Positions 4,083 to 23,696 of a DNA stretch of 51,733 nucleotides are shown here, in pieces. The position numbers and the translations under genes were made by a program. Each line of letters opens with the position of its first letter. Position 1 is the stretch's first letter. This DNA comes from a virus: UHGV virus genome UHGV-0405561; one strand, 5' to 3'. Under the pieces are notes generated by a model. It had not been told where the DNA came from. It did not search any database and saw only the letters and a list, made by a program, of their open reading frames with translations.

Positions 4083-5678
4083 ATGGCGTTTAAATTTATT
4101 CGCACCGGAACCGGCGAGCTATCCGGCCCTTCCATGATTTACCAGATAGAGCAGGGGTTCGACGACACGGCGGCCTCTGCCGAGGAAGCGCGCAAGATGG
4201 CAGCAAATGCCGAAGCCACGGCGAATAAGGCGCTGGAGGAGGCTACCGAAGCAACAGCCGTGGCGGATGTGGCCCTGAAGACGGCTCAGGATGCGCAGGC
4301 AAGCGCAGGCGCGGCGCAAAACCGGGCGGACGAGGCGTGGAGCGCGGCGACCGGCGGGGGCGAATCCGCCGAGGCCGCCATGCAGCGGGCCAATGCCGCA
4401 TACGTGTTGGCGGACACGGCGAACGCCAACGCCCTGAGCGCACAATCCAAAGCTGACGCGGCTACCACAGCGGCGGAAGAAGCCACCACGTCGGCGGATA
4501 CGGCGGCTGCGGCCGCAACGGAAGCCACGGCAACGGCAAACGAAGCCATCTCCAAAGCGGGGACGGCGGAATTTGCGGCTCATCAGGCGTCTTCGGACGT
4601 ACAGGTGCTCAAGTCAATCATTGACGGATTGGAGAGCGCGACAGACGAGTTTGAAGCAGACAGCTATACTACGTCTCTTGATAGCTTTGTAAGCACCCTC
4701 GTAAAAAAATACATTACTGGTACGATTACCTCCGTTCTTCCTGGCGGCGTGTCCGCGCCATTCTGGTTCTACAACTGGTCTACGAATAATCTCACTAAAG
4801 TTTTTCAGTTTATCCAAACGGATACTGGAAAATATGGGCGTATCGGAACTCCATCGGACATTACCATGCGCGATGGAGAAGATACGTTTTACATTCAGTT
4901 CAAAAGTGGGACGTCTACTTCGGCAACGTCCGTAGCCGTTTCTTGCGCCGACAATGCGCTAACCGCTGCGGGCCAACGTGGGTTTACGTGGACAGTGACA
5001 TCCACTCCGGCACGGGGCCTTGTGGGGACGCTGGCGTGGGATGCCACCACACCCGACGGGACGGAAATCATCATTGGCAACCGGGTTGTCGCTACTGTCA
5101 CCGGCGGCAACGTGGTGGTGAGTGACGCTAGCCCTTTCCCCAGCACAAACGCGACTCTCGCACTTATGGCCGGCACGATTGCCGCTTCCTCCACCACACT
5201 CGAAATTTCTTTCGTTTGGACTTCGTTAGACGCTTCCGGGTGCACGTGGGATGTGTGGAATGAAACGGGGGATAAAGAAGGGGTCGTGCGTACGACTGGA
5301 GACCAGTCCATCGCGGGGACAAAGACATTCATTGGTGCGGTTCGGTTAACGGACGTTGCCGAAAAATTCCAAACGGTTTCGAGCGCAACAGGAACTGTTT
5401 CACTTAACCTCTCCGACGGCAACATTTTCTACCTAACTGCAACCGGCAATCTCGCGCTGGAGTTTGTCGGTCTGATTTCGGGTTTCGTCCATTCGGTTTT
5501 CATTCAGCTTACAAACGGCGGGAATTACACCGTTGCGTACCCGGCAAACGTGAGATGGCCCGAAAAGGCCGCCCCCACTTTGACGGAAAACGGGATGGAC
5601 TTGCTCATGTTTATCACTAATGACAACGGTTCTTCATGGGATGCTACCTACTGTCTTGATATTGGGGTTCCGGCATGA
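4083..5678 (+). CDS. tail fibre protein with N-terminal Ala-rich coiled coil
   Basis: ATG at 4083 with SD AAGGTG 6 nt upstream. N-terminal AEATANKALEEATEATAVADVALKTAQDAQASAGAAQNRADEA coiled coil, then a T/S-rich beta-type distal domain. Confidence 0.55.
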   Translation: MAFKFIRTGTGELSGPSMIYQIEQGFDDTAASAEEARKMAANAEATANKALEEATEATAVADVALKTAQDAQASAGAAQNRADEAWSAATGGGESAEAAMQRANAAYVLADTANANALSAQSKADAATTAAEEATTSADTAAAAATEATATANEAISKAGTAEFAAHQASSDVQVLKSIIDGLESATDEFEADSYTTSLDSFVSTLVKKYITGTITSVLPGGVSAPFWFYNWSTNNLTKVFQFIQTDTGKYGRIGTPSDITMRDGEDTFYIQFKSGTSTSATSVAVSCADNALTAAGQRGFTWTVTSTPARGLVGTLAWDATTPDGTEIIIGNRVVATVTGGNVVVSDASPFPSTNATLALMAGTIAASSTTLEISFVWTSLDASGCTWDVWNETGDKEGVVRTTGDQSIAGTKTFIGAVRLTDVAEKFQTVSSATGTVSLNLSDGNIFYLTATGNLALEFVGLISGFVHSVFIQLTNGGNYTVAYPANVRWPEKAAPTLTENGMDLLMFITNDNGSSWDATYCLDIGVPA

Positions 5679-6808
5679 TCCAAAAAATGTTTATGGGTAT
5701 GATGGGCGCATCTGACGTTAATCCATTTTCTCGTGAGCAGCAGTTCATCACCTCTGGAACGTATGAGTTTGTCGTCCCAAAGGGCGTGAAAGGGATTAAA
5801 GCTCTGGTCATCGGGGGGGGCGCGAAGGGAAAGACGAATGGCGTAGCAACCGGAGGGAAGGGTGGCGGTGTCATATCCGGCATCATCAAAGTAAGACCCG
5901 GAGACATCTTGAGTATCGCGGTAGGCGCGGTGTTGGAAAATGTGGGAGGTACGTCTGCGATAACCCGAGCTGGAGACGTGTTGCTGCAAGGCAACGGTGG
6001 AACGAATGCAGCCCGGGGAGGTACTGCGTACGCTGAGCTTGTGACGCTGCTTTCAAACTACAATGCTACGAGCTTGCCCACGGCAGTGTATAAAGGTTGT
6101 AGATCGTTCCTTGAAATGGCCGACGACGCATGGGCGTTTCATCCGGGGTTTTGGGCCGGGGGGAATGGTGGGGGATATAGTTCTGCATACGGTGCAACGA
6201 AAGGTAGTAGCGGAAAGTTGGGTACAGGTGGATACGGGATCGGCGGAACTGGCGGAACTGGGGGACTGAATGACTATGCTAAGACTTACGGTGAAAATGG
6301 CGGCGGAGAATTCGGGGGAGGAGGCGGAAGTCCGACAACCCAAGCTTACCATGCTAATGGTGGAGGTGGTGGCGGTAGCGGAGATGGCTTAGGAGGCAAT
6401 GGGGGTAGAGGTGGAGACACTGCTCTCGGCGGAGGCTTTGGAGGCAACGGGGGAACCGGTTTTGGAGCCGGGGGCGGTGGAGGCGGCGGCGCAAATCTGG
6501 GAGGTACTTCAGGTACGGCTGGGGCGGGAGGAAGAGGCGGTGGACCGAGGGGAGGAGCAGGGGGGAAAGGCAGCATTTATATGCAGGATAATAGCAATAA
6601 AGGAGGTGGAGGAGGCGGGGGAGGTGGAGGAGAATTTGGCGGCTACGGCGGCAACGGCGGCTCAGGCGGCTACAGTGGCCCAGGCGGTTACGGAGGAAAT
6701 GGAGGAAATGGAGGATATGGAGGAGACGGAGGAGACGGAGGTTCTGGAGGAATTAAGGTCGGAAACGGAGGCGCAGGTGGACCCGGAGCGGTCGTAATAT
6801 GGTATTAA
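5675..6808 (+). CDS. glycine-rich fibre-associated protein (Gly_rich PF12810-like)
   Basis: 377 aa. N-terminal globular part (TSGTYEFVVPKGVKGIKALVIGGGAKG), then about 230 aa of GGNGG/GGYGG repeats. Encoded by GGN-repeat low-complexity DNA at 6150-6800. Confidence 0.5.
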   Translation: MIQKMFMGMMGASDVNPFSREQQFITSGTYEFVVPKGVKGIKALVIGGGAKGKTNGVATGGKGGGVISGIIKVRPGDILSIAVGAVLENVGGTSAITRAGDVLLQGNGGTNAARGGTAYAELVTLLSNYNATSLPTAVYKGCRSFLEMADDAWAFHPGFWAGGNGGGYSSAYGATKGSSGKLGTGGYGIGGTGGTGGLNDYAKTYGENGGGEFGGGGGSPTTQAYHANGGGGGGSGDGLGGNGGRGGDTALGGGFGGNGGTGFGAGGGGGGGANLGGTSGTAGAGGRGGGPRGGAGGKGSIYMQDNSNKGGGGGGGGGGEFGGYGGNGGSGGYSGPGGYGGNGGNGGYGGDGGDGGSGGIKVGNGGAGGPGAVVIWY

Positions 6809-9409: not shown

Positions 9410-10438
9410 TCAATCGCCTTCATGCGTGATTCCATGCGTGATGTCCTCAAAAATTCCCGCAGTTTCCCTGTCGACACCGAGGTCATGCAGATAGATTTCT
9501 GTGGTGCGAATGTTCATGTGTCCAAGCACCTTTTGCGCCCGGCGCGGGTCTTTGAGATGGGTAGCCATAAAGTGGCGCAGGCTGTGGGCCGTAAAGAACG
9601 GTATGCCCGCCTTCTCGCAAAGGCGCTTCATAAGATACTTGATGCGCGGCGTAGTGCGTGGGTAGGGGAGTCCCGTTCCGGGGGCTTCAAAAACAAACCG
9701 CTCATTTTCGCGTAAGGCATAGAGACGGAACAACACCCCGTACAGAGTTGGGCTCATGGCAATCGTGCGTGATTCTCGGTTTCCGCCCCGGCGTTTGCTT
9801 GTCCACAGCCGGACGGTCCTGTTTTCCAGATCAACATCTTCCCACGCCATTTCTCGGATTTCAGAGATGCGCCCCGCCGTGTGAAGAAGGCAGAACAGGA
9901 AATCCCGCTCGAACCCGGTAGCGCAGGACATGAGCTTTGCGACGTCATTTTTAGGCGGGATGTACTTTACTGTCTGTACAGTGGAGAAGGGCTCAGTCTG
10001 GCGCGCGATATTGACCGAAACGTATCCCTCTCGTGTAGCCCATGAGTAAAGCGCGGACAACTCAATGCGATATTTGTTCGCGGACTTCCCGCTCACGGCT
10101 TCCTTGGCTGTTTCGAGAAAGCCTTCCAGATCGTTTTTGGTGATGGTGGAGAATTCGGTTTTAGGGCCGATGAATCTGTTCAGCTTCCGGAGTACGCTTT
10201 TCTTATAGATAAGGGTGTTCTTCTTGCATCGTCCTTCGCGTTTTTGCAGATAAAGCGCCGTGACCTCATACAAGGCCAAGCGTCTGGGCATAGTCACGGA
10301 GTCCTTGGCGGTCGATTCCCATTTGAGCGCCTCCAGCTTTGTCAAGAATCCGCCCCGGTACGCGATTCTTTGCCCTCCCTCGAACACTTCCGCCGCGTAT
10401 CGCATACCATTCTTCGTCTTGTATTTCCTGATTGACAT
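9410..10438 (-). CDS. int: tyrosine recombinase / phage integrase
   Basis: C-terminal catalytic motifs AHSLRHFMATHL and HMNIRTTEIYLH (R-H-R-Y family). N-terminal arm-binding-like RKYKTKNGMRYAAEVFEGGQRIAYRGGFLTKLEA. Start chosen at MSIRKYK. Confidence 0.85.
   Translation of the reverse strand: MSIRKYKTKNGMRYAAEVFEGGQRIAYRGGFLTKLEALKWESTAKDSVTMPRRLALYEVTALYLQKREGRCKKNTLIYKKSVLRKLNRFIGPKTEFSTITKNDLEGFLETAKEAVSGKSANKYRIELSALYSWATREGYVSVNIARQTEPFSTVQTVKYIPPKNDVAKLMSCATGFERDFLFCLLHTAGRISEIREMAWEDVDLENRTVRLWTSKRRGGNRESRTIAMSPTLYGVLFRLYALRENERFVFEAPGTGLPYPRTTPRIKYLMKRLCEKAGIPFFTAHSLRHFMATHLKDPRRAQKVLGHMNIRTTEIYLHDLGVDRETAGIFEDITHGITHEGD
9422..9442. repeat. tandem ATGCGTGAT arm-type repeat (right copy, inside the integrase 3' end)
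   Basis: ATGCGTGATTCCATGCGTGAT. Confidence 0.5.
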
Positions 10439-19989: not shown

Positions 19990-20232
19990 CTACTTTTTCG
20001 CGGGCAGAAGCTGGTAGCCGAGTTCCCGCGCCATGAGTTCGAGCGGTCGGGCGTCGCCGGTGGCCTGAATGATGCCCATGAGCGTTTCTACGCCGAGTTT
20101 CGCGCCGGTGTCGCAGGGATTGGTTTCCCGGAGCAGGGTCGAGTATTTTTTGTCCACGGCCTTGGCGATGTCCTTGGCGGGCACCTTGCCTTGCGTCACG
20201 ATTTCGTGAACGGCCTCAATGACTTTGGTCAT
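19990..20232 (-). CDS. phage 186 CII-family regulator, short form (80 aa)
   Basis: KDIAKAVDKKYSTLLRETNPCDTGAKLGVETLMGIIQATGD...LELMARELGY is paralogous to the 23202-23696 protein (RAMAAEMDMAPSSLGNVLNPYADRASVKLGLEQAAFIMRRTGD...LQLLAAELGY). Confidence 0.5.
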   Translation of the reverse strand: MTKVIEAVHEIVTQGKVPAKDIAKAVDKKYSTLLRETNPCDTGAKLGVETLMGIIQATGDARPLELMARELGYQLLPAKK

Positions 20233-20408
20233 ATTGTCCTCGTGAAGGTTCGTGTTGTTTCCTGTGGTTGTCGGACGGTATCGCTCAGGTCCACCGTGGT
20301 TTCCCAACCCCAGACACCGACGCGCCCGCCGATGCCGCTGGTTCCCGCCGACCCGTCGCGGCCTGTGAGGACGGCGGGGGAGGTCCTCGCTCGTCGTGAA
20401 AAGTGTAA

Positions 20409-20457
20409 TACCAATTGGTAAAAGATAGGTCAAGAATAAAATTCCCAATAGGTAAAA
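20409..20457. promoter_or_regulatory. TACCAATTGGTA palindromic operator plus half-site CCAATAGGTAAAA
   Basis: Perfect 12-bp palindrome at 20409-20420. The same motif family recurs in the cI/cro intergenic region. Confidence 0.5.
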
Positions 20458-20554
20458 TATAGAGTAAAAAATACCACCGACACCACGAAGGCATCGGCGG
20501 TCACGCCCGGCAGGGCACAAAAAAAGCCCCTCGGATGAGGGGCGGGGAGGAAAG

Positions 20555-21395: not shown

Positions 21396-21429
21396 GAATT
21401 CCCCCTTCTCCCCGCCCCGGCGGGGATTT

Positions 21430-21864
21430 TCATTTGCTACATGAGGCCGCACACATCATCAGCAAAAGCCCGTCAACATCTGCGGCAAGACCGTATAGGC
21501 AACCCTCGATCATGCTGTTCATGTGATTAAACGGCGTATCCCCGCCTCGTCGGAAGTCGGTGCGGATACCAAAGATAGGAAGACCTTTGGCGTAGGCGTA
21601 CCCGATTTCCCAAGCCGTGCCGTCATCAACCTGAGTGCCGTCAAGCAAGGCGACAACGCAGGTACTGTGGTCAATGGCGTTTCGGCACATATCAAAGATA
21701 AGGGAGATCGCCCCGGGGCCAGCGGCTTTGATTTGGTCTGAGGTGAGCAAGTCTCCCGGCCAGACCACGGAGTGCCCTGCTGCGCGCAGGCGTTCGGAAA
21801 GATTACCATGCCACGCTCGTTCGGCGTCTGAGAAAAGGGGGCCAGCCTGATAGATTTTATACAT
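21430..21864 (-). CDS. nucleoside 2-deoxyribosyltransferase (NDT)-like protein (NDT/Rcl fold)
   Basis: MYKIYQAGPLF...GTAWEIGYAYAKGLPIFG matches the NDT-family N-terminal and catalytic-region signatures. Starts 15 nt after the repressor stop, so it is in the same operon. Confidence 0.6.
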   Translation of the reverse strand: MYKIYQAGPLFSDAERAWHGNLSERLRAAGHSVVWPGDLLTSDQIKAAGPGAISLIFDMCRNAIDHSTCVVALLDGTQVDDGTAWEIGYAYAKGLPIFGIRTDFRRGGDTPFNHMNSMIEGCLYGLAADVDGLLLMMCAASCSK

Positions 21865-21878
21865 GCGGCACTCCACGG

Positions 21879-22610: not shown

Positions 22611-22621
22611 GAGTTTACTTT

Positions 22622-22692
22622 TACCAGTTGGAAAAAAATATATCTACACACCAATAGGTAAATAGTATTGACTAGTATTTTACCTACTGGTA
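22622..22692. promoter_or_regulatory. cI/cro divergent promoter with three TACC-N4-GGTA-type operators
   Basis: TACCAGTTGG, ACCAATAGGTAAA and TACCTACTGGTA. TTGACT at 22668 and TATTCA at 22691 would make cro mRNA nearly leaderless. Confidence 0.5.
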
Positions 22693-22702
22693 TTCATGCG
22701 GT

Positions 22703-22954
22703 ATGAAAACCGACCTTCCACAGCGTAAATTTTATGGTTTCTCAGTCAAGGATGCCGCTGCACTATCTGGATTTCCATATGTAACCGTATGGAGACATTT
22801 GAATAACCAGCGGAATATAAGCCCAGAAGCAGCTATTCGCTATCACTCAACGTTGGGGGTTCCTCTTGCTGTTCTGAGGCCCGATATATGGCCTCCAACG
22901 TCCCCCAACACTCCCACCGAACCCGAAGAGGAGGCTGTCCATGAGCTGGCCTGA
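22703..22954 (+). CDS. cro: Cro-like HTH regulator
   Basis: 83 aa, divergent from cI. HTH AAALSGFPYVTVWRHLN. Confidence 0.5.
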   Translation: MKTDLPQRKFYGFSVKDAAALSGFPYVTVWRHLNNQRNISPEAAIRYHSTLGVPLAVLRPDIWPPTSPNTPTEPEEEAVHELA

Positions 22955-23201: not shown

Positions 23202-23696
23202 ATGAATGGTGAAGTCATGAACATCCCCACATACGAGCACGTCATCGAAGCCGTGCAGACGGCGGTGAAGAAGTACCCCGGCGGCGTCCGTGCGATGGCC
23301 GCCGAGATGGATATGGCGCCGTCGAGCCTCGGCAATGTCCTTAACCCCTATGCGGATCGCGCCTCGGTCAAGCTCGGGCTGGAGCAGGCCGCGTTCATCA
23401 TGCGCCGGACGGGCGACGTGTCGGCGCTCCAGCTTCTTGCGGCGGAGCTCGGCTACACGCTCCTCCCGATGCACGCAGAACCGGACAAGGATGTGAAAGG
23501 TGAACAGCTTGATGACGTTCAGCGGCTGGCCGAATTCCAACGGGCACTCAACAGCGATGCGCCGGACAAGGATCGGGTGATGACGTTTTTTGCGCTGGTT
23601 TGCGACTTGGTGGAGACGGAAACGGCAAAGCGTAAGGAGCGCGGGCAGGTCTACAGGCAGGGAAAGGGATTCGTGAACGTAGAGGATGTGCGATGA
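23202..23696 (+). CDS. phage 186 CII-family transcriptional regulator
   Basis: See the paralogue at 19990-20232. The NVLNPYAD...LGLEQAAFIMRRTGD pattern resembles 186 CII (NKLNPEQ...). Confidence 0.5.
   Translation: MNGEVMNIPTYEHVIEAVQTAVKKYPGGVRAMAAEMDMAPSSLGNVLNPYADRASVKLGLEQAAFIMRRTGDVSALQLLAAELGYTLLPMHAEPDKDVKGEQLDDVQRLAEFQRALNSDAPDKDRVMTFFALVCDLVETETAKRKERGQVYRQGKGFVNVEDVR

Follow-up and report, generated by a model that had tools for sequence, protein, structure and literature searches.

What is an enzyme of nucleoside chemistry doing in the immunity region of a temperate phage? The question is raised by the viral genome UHGV-0405561, which was analysed over its full length of 51,733 nucleotides (nt) and is referred to below as the window. 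It contains a gene for a 144-amino-acid (aa) protein of the nucleoside 2-deoxyribosyltransferase (NDT) family, situated directly downstream of a cI-like repressor gene. The preferred reading, which is put forward tentatively, is that the immunity region carries the NDT gene as accessory cargo (a 'moron'), from which the lysogen most likely gains protection against other phages. The position of the gene is considered first, followed by the predicted enzyme, the genes found next to its homologues, and the known systems that it resembles.

Position of the NDT gene behind the repressor

The NDT gene (Table 1) is a real gene under purifying selection and not a chance open reading frame (ORF), its ratio of nonsynonymous to synonymous substitution rates (dN/dS) being 0.12-0.20 in comparison with phage copies of 91-94 % identity. 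Its translation agrees with the one quoted in an earlier note on this DNA, in which the gene was placed 15 nt after the cI stop codon on the same strand. The two genes do lie close together on the minus strand, with the correction that the spacer between the cI TAA and the NDT ATG (CCGTGGAGTGCCGC) is 14 nt long. A GGAG ribosome-binding site is present in the spacer, 6 nt 5′ of the ATG, and a consensus scan revealed no promoter-like or terminator-like site there. An alternative GTG start codon, at 21876, is unlikely to be used because it falls within the Shine-Dalgarno region.

The product of the upstream gene matches HTH_3 (1.5e-6) and, weakly, Peptidase_S24 (0.0055) in Pfam, as well as a repressor family in PHROG (phrog_4, 3.9e-14); by eye, an Ala-Gly site, an SMLP serine motif and a KIKR lysine can be recognised. 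The cI ATG (22610) has no recognisable Shine-Dalgarno sequence, and an operator copy ends 9 nt upstream of it. By analogy with lambda, the maintenance transcript may be leaderless.

The earlier note had likened the position of the NDT gene to that of the rexAB genes of lambda, and the likeness is real. The 12-mer CCAATWGGTAAA, with one mismatch at most, occurs six times in 51.7 kb, against 0.27 matches expected, and five of the six matches fall into two clusters, one on each side of the repressor operon. The right-hand cluster (three copies) occupies the 92-nt intergenic region between cI and cro. The left-hand cluster (two exact copies, from a motif scan) has just to its right two hairpins with T runs that resemble intrinsic terminators, and it is here that the repressor-operon transcript likely ends. 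Besides cI and the NDT gene, the region enclosed by the operators and the minus-strand terminators contains two more cargo ORFs. From right to left along the minus strand, the sequence of elements is right operators, cI, NDT, a hairpin, orf78, orf199 (on the opposite strand), terminators, left operators and the early-left operon, which comprises a CP76-like gene, ERF, SSB and DUF1351. The layout in lambda is OR-cI-rexA-rexB-OL, the same order, and the rexAB analogy of position is well founded, backed by the operators on both sides, the terminators and the recurrence behind unrelated repressors described below. The NDT gene is downstream of the repressor and on the same strand, between the operator clusters and ahead of the terminator.

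Related Bilophila phages provide additional data on this arrangement. DNA comparison with three of them (L088, L089 and L091) revealed a common cro-cI-NDT block reaching to about 21404, shortly beyond the hairpin; similarity returns at the terminator/left-operator block (20384-20544), and the 0.5-1.1 kb between differs in each. With three others (L092, L093 and L008), only 21404-21858, i.e. the NDT gene and the hairpin, is common, at about 91.5 % nt identity. The repressor of these phages is a 232-aa helix-turn-helix (HTH) protein, unrelated at the DNA level, in which GDSMEP is read as the S24 motif. A module boundary at about 21404 is common to all of the related phages compared. It is apparent that the NDT gene and its hairpin form a discrete module that is kept behind the repressors of heteroimmune phages.

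Linkage to repressors was surveyed more widely in 108 loci with an NDT ORF, which form 75 clusters at 85 % identity. Repressors were recognised with an S24/cI profile built iteratively from four repressors; neighbouring genes were taken from lists of all ORFs and from homology searches, a crude form of ORF picking. A cluster was counted as linked if a repressor gene on the same strand ends 0-1300 nt before the NDT start. Repressors homologous to the cI-like protein of the window precede NDT in other prophages, and among the 66 clusters whose upstream flank extends over at least 1.5 kb, 15 proved to be linked, about half of them with the two genes directly adjacent and the rest with one gene between. 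As S24 proteins account for some 0.1 % of bacterial genes in general, this linkage (23 %) would be far above chance. Identity of the linked repressors to the cI of the window ranges from 89 % down to <30 %. In a rough neighbour-joining tree, the branch that contains the window is almost entirely linked: it holds nine linked clusters and four unlinked ones, of which one is next to a phage baseplate gene (L014), one is next to a glutaminyl-tRNA synthetase (GlnRS) gene (L011) and two are on contigs too short to judge. A second branch holds four more linked clusters.

The identical protein was found in 104 blocks of the assembly collection, and in all six of the places shown the surrounding DNA is the same prophage, with terminase, lysozyme, ERF, SSB and Bro/ANT genes; one copy belongs to a contig of 210 kb. 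Among named genomes, the nearest is that of Bilophila wadsworthia ATCC 49260 (91 % identity), in which the match follows a different repressor and is on a 6.9-kb contig that is classed as viral in IMG/VR too. The carrier is a temperate phage of the gut bacterium Bilophila. No DNA match was found among cultured phages, in which the protein matches are only to 34-36 % identical genes of large Lactococcus and Enterococcus phages.

Table 1. Features of the immunity region in the window, in order of position
Feature	Position	Strand	Remarks
Left operator cluster, two exact copies of the 12-mer	20411-20422, 20445-20456		Motif scan
Two intrinsic-terminator-like hairpins with T runs	20501-20473, 20543-20526	-	Just right of the left operators
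orf199, 199 aa	20555..21154	+	Convergent; antisense to the repressor operon; locally G+C-poorer stretch; independent cargo module
orf78, 78 aa	21159..21395	-	Cys-rich; strong Shine-Dalgarno sequence; directly after the hairpin; variable cargo outside the NDT module
G+C-rich hairpin	21409..21426		4 nt past the NDT stop; terminator-like on the plus strand only; moves with NDT
NDT-family gene, 144 aa	21430..21864	-	ATG at 21864, stop at 21430; ORF, PF05014, AlphaFold2 model, residue mapping, dN/dS
GGAG ribosome-binding site	21871..21874 (21874-21871)	-	In the cI-NDT spacer
cI-like repressor, 243 aa	21879..22610	-	HTH and S24-like C-terminal domain
Right operator cluster, three copies of the 12-mer	22620-22631, 22651-22662, 22679-22690		cI/cro intergenic region
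cro-like HTH gene	22703..22954	+	Divergent; followed by cII-like (CP76) and Bro/ANT genes

The hairpin that follows the NDT gene may shield the repressor operon from convergent transcription of orf199. Neither orf78 nor orf199 has a family match in the family libraries searched. The former was found in exact relatives only and is not called in public assemblies. Homologues of the latter form only 4 clusters among 5.8 billion proteins, and in other prophages they occupy the same slot behind different repressors without NDT. This, together with the absence of orf199 from the 91-94 % identical NDT relatives, led to its rejection as a partner of NDT. A two-gene system was rejected in more general terms, as the NDT-adjacent proteins of the window, L114, L115, L118 and L001 are mutually dissimilar; over 66-68 clusters, the neighbours of NDT are heterogeneous both upstream and downstream.

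Two CP76 (cII-like) paralogues were observed in the window. One, at 23202-23696 on the plus strand, lies to the right of cro, where cII is usually found; the other, at about 19990-20240 on the minus strand, is the first gene to the left of the left operators, the place of lambda N. Elsewhere in the window, a 377-aa ORF (5675-6808, plus strand) is extremely glycine-rich, GGxGG being repeated in long runs, and the GC skew rises to a spike of 0.34 at its position; a fibre or surface protein is a possible product.

Family, fold and active site of the predicted enzyme

The protein matches PF05014 (clan Nribosyltransf) with an E value of 7.3e-21 and 74.9 bits (cut-off 28.8), PF15891 with an E value of 1.1e-10, and two NDT families in PHROGs; no NCBIfam model matched it. 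Its closest solved relatives by sequence are two tetrameric deoxyribosyltransferases, EfPDT (Protein Data Bank, PDB, 7M5H; single-sequence E value 1e-13, profile E value 1.8e-21) and DpNDT (PDB 7O62; 2e-11 and 5.4e-18, respectively), followed by CtNDT, BpNDT and LhPDT. DNPH1/Rcl proteins were not among the matches of the PDB sequence search.

An AlphaFold2 monomer model derived from 119 homologues (mean pLDDT 92.8, pTM 0.88) is a compact single domain, on which no DNA-binding surface is evident at first sight. When the model was compared with the PDB using Foldseek, DpNDT (7o62) ranked first, with a template modelling (TM) score of 0.84-0.88 and a root-mean-square deviation of 1.8 Å, followed by EfPDT (TM 0.77), CtNDT, LhPDT, BpNDT and LlNDT. 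Every one of the top 34 matches is a deoxyribosyltransferase of the NDT family; two are chains of an engineered LlNDT variant. The DNPH1/Rcl chains rank 40th or lower (TM about 0.54-0.64), and BcmB and YtoQ are also far down the list (TM about 0.55-0.68 for these together with DNPH1/Rcl). Because DpNDT and EfPDT rank so far above DNPH1/Rcl, the modelled protein groups with nucleoside-using transferases rather than with hydrolases of deoxynucleoside monophosphates (dNMP).

Residues were mapped by means of profile alignments, hmmalign alignments of reference proteins and homologues, and published residue lists, and conservation was assessed in two alignments of close relatives, of 27 and 119 sequences. 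The catalytic Tyr (Tyr5) and the nucleophile (Glu86) are invariant in the former and conserved in at least 90 % of the latter; they align with Y5 and E86 of EfPDT, Y16 and E100 of DpNDT, and Y7 and E88 of CtNDT. The same conservation was observed for Asn and Met of Asn116-Ser-Met118, the 'NLM' motif, whose Asn is contributed by the partner subunit. Asp80, the sugar ligand that follows beta-4, and Pro36 are conserved in at least 90 % of both alignments. Pro36 aligns with a Pro of DpNDT and CtNDT that has been described as conserved in transferases. Asp109, which is Asp or Glu in the 27-sequence alignment, aligns with Asp111 of CtNDT, the stabiliser of the leaving purine. As judged from the alignments, the set of active-site residues is intact apart from a single position, at which the third Asp of the triad (LlNDT D72, CtNDT D62, EfPDT D60, DpNDT D74) is replaced by Cys60.

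In CtNDT, D82 and N118 contact the 5′-OH of the sugar, and retention of the equivalent Asp80 and Asn116 favours nucleosides over 5′-phosphates as probable substrates. The earlier note had described an NDT/Rcl-fold protein. The NDT fold and family are borne out by PF05014, PF15891 and the structural comparison; the reading as an Rcl/DNPH1-type dNMP hydrolase is weakened and was set aside, given the weak structural match (TM about 0.55-0.62, as against 0.84-0.88 for DpNDT) and the retained 5′-OH ligands.

Cys60 was not foreseen in that note. It is invariant in the 27-sequence alignment and present in at least 90 % of the 119-sequence one. An exhaustive search (1822 matches at E <= 1e-3) was reduced to 150 wider representatives at 50 % identity, and among these residue 60 is Cys in 70, Asn in 38 and Asp in 23. 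Residue 60 is Cys in 14 of the 15 repressor-linked clusters and Gly in the other; none of the 18 Asp-type clusters is repressor-linked. D62 of CtNDT touches the base and the 3′-OH and clashes with the 2′-OH of ribose, about 50 % of the efficiency is left in a D62N variant, and DmtZ has an Asn (Asn77) at the triad position. The substitution need not abolish activity, since CtNDT D62N is active and DmtZ has Asn; from its sequence, Cys60 argues for an enzyme of altered specificity and not for a dead one.

These residues bear on the main rival of a protective role, namely metabolic lysogenic conversion. The NDT protein would then be an ordinary deoxynucleoside salvage transferase for the host, by which scavenged deoxynucleosides and bases would be interconverted in the gut, with no part in conflict. 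The rival is a possible explanation and, on balance, a somewhat unlikely one. It is in keeping with the deoxyribosyltransferase activity of DpNDT and EfPDT, the nearest relatives with both a structure and assay data, and with the retention of the sugar-binding residues, the nucleophile and the transferase Pro; the CtNDT D62N variant indicates that loss of the Asp need not alter the chemistry. A constitutive, harmless enzyme would also fit the lack of a sensor domain.

A match to TIR_2 (21.8 bits) was below the cut-off of 28. Such a score is consistent with distant kinship at the level of the fold only, and a TIR-domain NADase identity was rejected, the sequence being firmly NDT-like. The kinship of the fold with TIR and other N-glycosidases of NAD-derived molecules, weak as the TIR_2 match is, raises the further possibility of counter-defence or detoxification, in which prophage and host would be protected through destruction of a toxin or immune signal of the nucleoside type, for example chain-terminating analogues or ADP-ribose-derived signals. 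Mobile-element cargo beside defence genes is often anti-defence. The firmly NDT-like sequence and the sub-threshold TIR score speak against such a function, however, as do the retained deoxyribose-type ligands, which argue against NAD-like substrates. Counter-defence genes are typically expressed early in infection, whereas a gene of the repressor operon would be expected to be active in the lysogen. This explanation is considered very improbable.

Neighbouring genes and possible roles

The repressor operons of several other prophages combine NDT with further genes (annotated with Pfam). That of Desulfovibrio desulfuricans CP176628 comprises an S24 repressor, a Fic protein, NDT, an SDH-type protease and then the early operon. 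In L120, the order is S24, a 340-aa and a 178-aa protein, NDT and a 260-aa protein; in L118, S24 and NDT, next to a primase-helicase; and in L114, S24, a 232-aa protein, NDT and a 202-aa protein. PADLOC identified the Fic protein of the D. desulfuricans operon as SoFic (E value 6.9e-107), and the 340-aa and 178-aa pair of L120 as PDC-M18A and PDC-M18B (1.9e-76 and 2.3e-20, respectively). The operon coordinates in two sister Desulfovibrio prophages are 6852-9519 in L001, with SoFic and the SDH-type protease, and 3449-6222 in L120, with PDC-M18A/B and the 260-aa protein, which is uncharacterised.

L114 carries, in addition to the repressor-operon NDT, a second, divergent PF05014 gene further along (9781-10263, 160 aa), in the early-left operon near RdgC.

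Three observations suggest the preferred reading, that of a conflict-related role: the recurrent position behind repressors, the operon shared with defence genes, and the existence of other NDT-fold proteins involved in phage conflict (the effector of retron Ec86, AbiJ-NTD1 fusions and DmtZ). That the gene serves exclusion or defence had been suggested in the earlier note; it is association, with SoFic and PDC-M18 in the same operon slot of sister prophages, that supports this. A role in DNA-precursor modification, which the note had also offered, is weakened, as a gene of the repressor operon is placed for the lysogen and not for lytic DNA synthesis; modification of the phage's own precursors is unlikely because the gene is wired to the repressor promoter.

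A mechanism can be proposed. The NDT gene would be co-transcribed with cI from the maintenance promoter, and its product would be made in the lysogen. To judge from the conserved residues, Glu86 would attack C1′ of a substrate of the (deoxy)nucleoside type, the base would leave with the help of Asp109, and the sugar would pass to water or to another base; Cys60 may relax the specificity for sugar or base. The genomic context suggests that the enzyme might remove, or swap the bases of, deoxynucleoside-type compounds, possibly non-canonical ones, that an incoming phage needs, leaving the host unharmed.

Several points weigh against a protective role. The NDT protein has no sensor or regulatory domain and should be constitutively active; the nucleotide-depleting defences described so far are, to our knowledge, gated. 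The pool of free deoxynucleosides is small, which would make an enzyme specific for nucleosides a weak weapon against ordinary phages, and the poverty of this target is a point in favour of salvage. The activity of the nearest characterised enzymes, deoxyribosyl transfer, is usually read as salvage. No model in PADLOC-DB v2, which includes the retron NDT effectors, matched the NDT protein at E <= 0.01, and the literature searched contained no stand-alone NDT tied to a prophage immunity region or to defence. Outside prophages, the immediate neighbours include, in favour of such a role, Type ISP restriction-modification, Mrr (with a 1-nt gap), DUF499/MADS, DrmC, HmaC, PbeA and several PDC candidates; ordinary genes such as GlnRS, GGDEF-EAL and RtcR are found there as well. 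The defence-type neighbours outside prophages that could be assigned to a locus (L018 and L029; L036 was not placed) belong to the Asp-type branch. Finally, homologues of 60-66 % identity are abundant at ordinary chromosomal loci (next to fxsA, to lipoprotein genes, to transporter and glycosyltransferase genes, or to GlnRS).

These chromosomal homologues outside mobile elements, which like Cys60 had not been foreseen, favour the salvage explanation. In a scan of one genome per species, the sole Bilophila match was on an IMG/VR viral contig, and the phage copy may add an activity that the host lacks. In a metagenome-assembled genome of the Desulfovibrionaceae (L062, 7971-9905), an NDT gene, a YfbR-like 5′-deoxynucleotidase gene and a second NDT-like ORF stand in a row, the middle gene being taken to be YfbR-like from its match to a YfbR sequence; the row resembles dNMP catabolism or salvage and suggests a pathway from dNMP to deoxynucleoside to base. 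What salvage leaves unexplained is the position directly behind many unrelated repressors and the operon shared with SoFic and PDC-M18. The patchy distribution in the Desulfovibrionaceae and the highly variable contexts are also unlike those of a housekeeping gene. These features speak against a housekeeping orthologue, which the earlier note had regarded as contrary to its proposal; in view of a few ordinary chromosomal settings, however, this reading was not discarded and was kept as a rival.

In one abundant chromosomal variant (L123, 4503-5414), NDT begins 3 nt after fxsA. FxsA is known for the relief of F-plasmid exclusion of T7, and the adjacency may be a coincidence. In relatives of 40-47 % identity (P0152, P0167 and P0244), the NDT part is preceded by a fused segment of about 230-300 aa, in which several hydrophobic stretches resemble membrane spans. 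At the triad position, Asn was found in those of the fusions that were inspected; no PADLOC model matched these proteins.

A further rival is a glycosidase for non-canonical bases, which would cleave modified deoxynucleosides or deoxynucleotides, or excise modified bases from phage DNA, and in this way block hypermodified phages. The same logic reportedly underlies Brig1, a DNA-glycosylase defence. Mrr-type enzymes target modified DNA, and one such restriction enzyme gene lies 1 nt after an NDT homologue; the altered triad residue and a conserved Trp85 beside the nucleophile suggest a changed pocket. DNPH1 and DmtZ are examples of this fold adapted to one non-canonical nucleotide or to selected nucleotides, and such specificity would keep a constitutive enzyme safe for the host. 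DNA has also been proposed, by Anantharaman et al., as the target of NDT domains in Abi-like proteins. This rival is nonetheless quite improbable, in view of the compact predicted domain with no evident DNA-binding surface, and of the fact that the assignable Mrr and restriction-modification neighbours belong to the Asp-type branch and not to that of the window.

A bolder form of the preferred, protective reading can be stated, and it is an unlikely one. The Cys-type stand-alone NDT would be a previously unrecognised single-gene anti-phage system of temperate phages, in the form of a constitutive N-glycosidase or transferase with specificity for non-canonical deoxynucleosides, deoxynucleotides or modified DNA bases, which would starve or damage hypermodified superinfecting phages and leave the host pool untouched. 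The NDT enzyme family and the carriage of cargo behind cI are already known; the subgroup with a Tyr-Cys-Glu triad appears to be uncharacterised.

If lysogens are protected, the NDT protein would represent a new and very small type of effector, an ungated enzyme of nucleoside chemistry, in contrast to nucleases, membrane proteins and gated nucleotide depleters, and a role in phage-phage conflict would be added to a family known mainly from salvage and biocatalysis. If salvage is all that it does, it is an ordinary auxiliary metabolic gene. For biocatalysis with nucleoside analogues, the Tyr-Cys-Glu subgroup is of interest. In Desulfovibrionaceae/Bilophila prophages, the slot that follows the repressor is a cargo hotspot, with SoFic, PDC-M18, NDT, orf199 and several uncharacterised proteins, and a search of it could yield more systems from a sulfidogenic gut lineage of importance.

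Comparison with known systems

In both sequence and structure, the best matches to the NDT protein are DpNDT and EfPDT. With these it shares Y-x-A-G/A-P-L-F, D-D/A-G-x-x-x-E and T-D-x-R, and with DpNDT also N-x-M. It differs from them in its overall sequence (~30 % identity), in having Cys60 in place of the triad Asp (D74 and D60, respectively), and in Trp85 and Gln6, which are specific to its own clade. Both enzymes are active deoxyribosyltransferases in vitro; the work on them was concerned with biocatalysis, and no link to mobile elements was reported in it. CtNDT of Chroococcidiopsis thermalis (PDB 8PQT and others) can be aligned over the catalytic segments without gaps, its Y7, D82, E88, D111, N118 and M120 corresponding to Y5, D80, E86, D109, N116 and M118 of the NDT protein; again the triad Asp (D62) contrasts with Cys60, and the identity is ~25 %.

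DmtZ and DNPH1/Rcl are phage or cellular enzymes of the NDT superfamily that alter deoxynucleotide pools. The former, a dAMP hydrolase/deoxyribose-5-phosphate transferase of Z-genome phages whose gene lies near dutZ, resembles the NDT protein in having a residue other than Asp at the triad position. Both use 5′-monophosphates, however, whereas the gene described here is in a lysogeny operon and the structural match of its product to DNPH1 is much weaker.

Domains of the NDT fold are found as (predicted) anti-phage effectors in retron Ec86 (Retron-Eco1) and in the AbiJ-NTD1-NDT fusions. The retron effector is restrained by the complex of reverse transcriptase and msDNA, and the AbiJ-NTD1 fusion adds an N-terminal domain predicted to bind viral targets. 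In contrast to these, the NDT protein is a bare 144-aa domain that no PADLOC model recognises.

The NDT protein has no relation in sequence or fold to RexA/RexB or BstA. The likeness is one of position: lambda rexAB, BstA and SoFic-type repressor-linked cargo follow the same genomic logic as the NDT gene, each being placed for expression in the lysogen.

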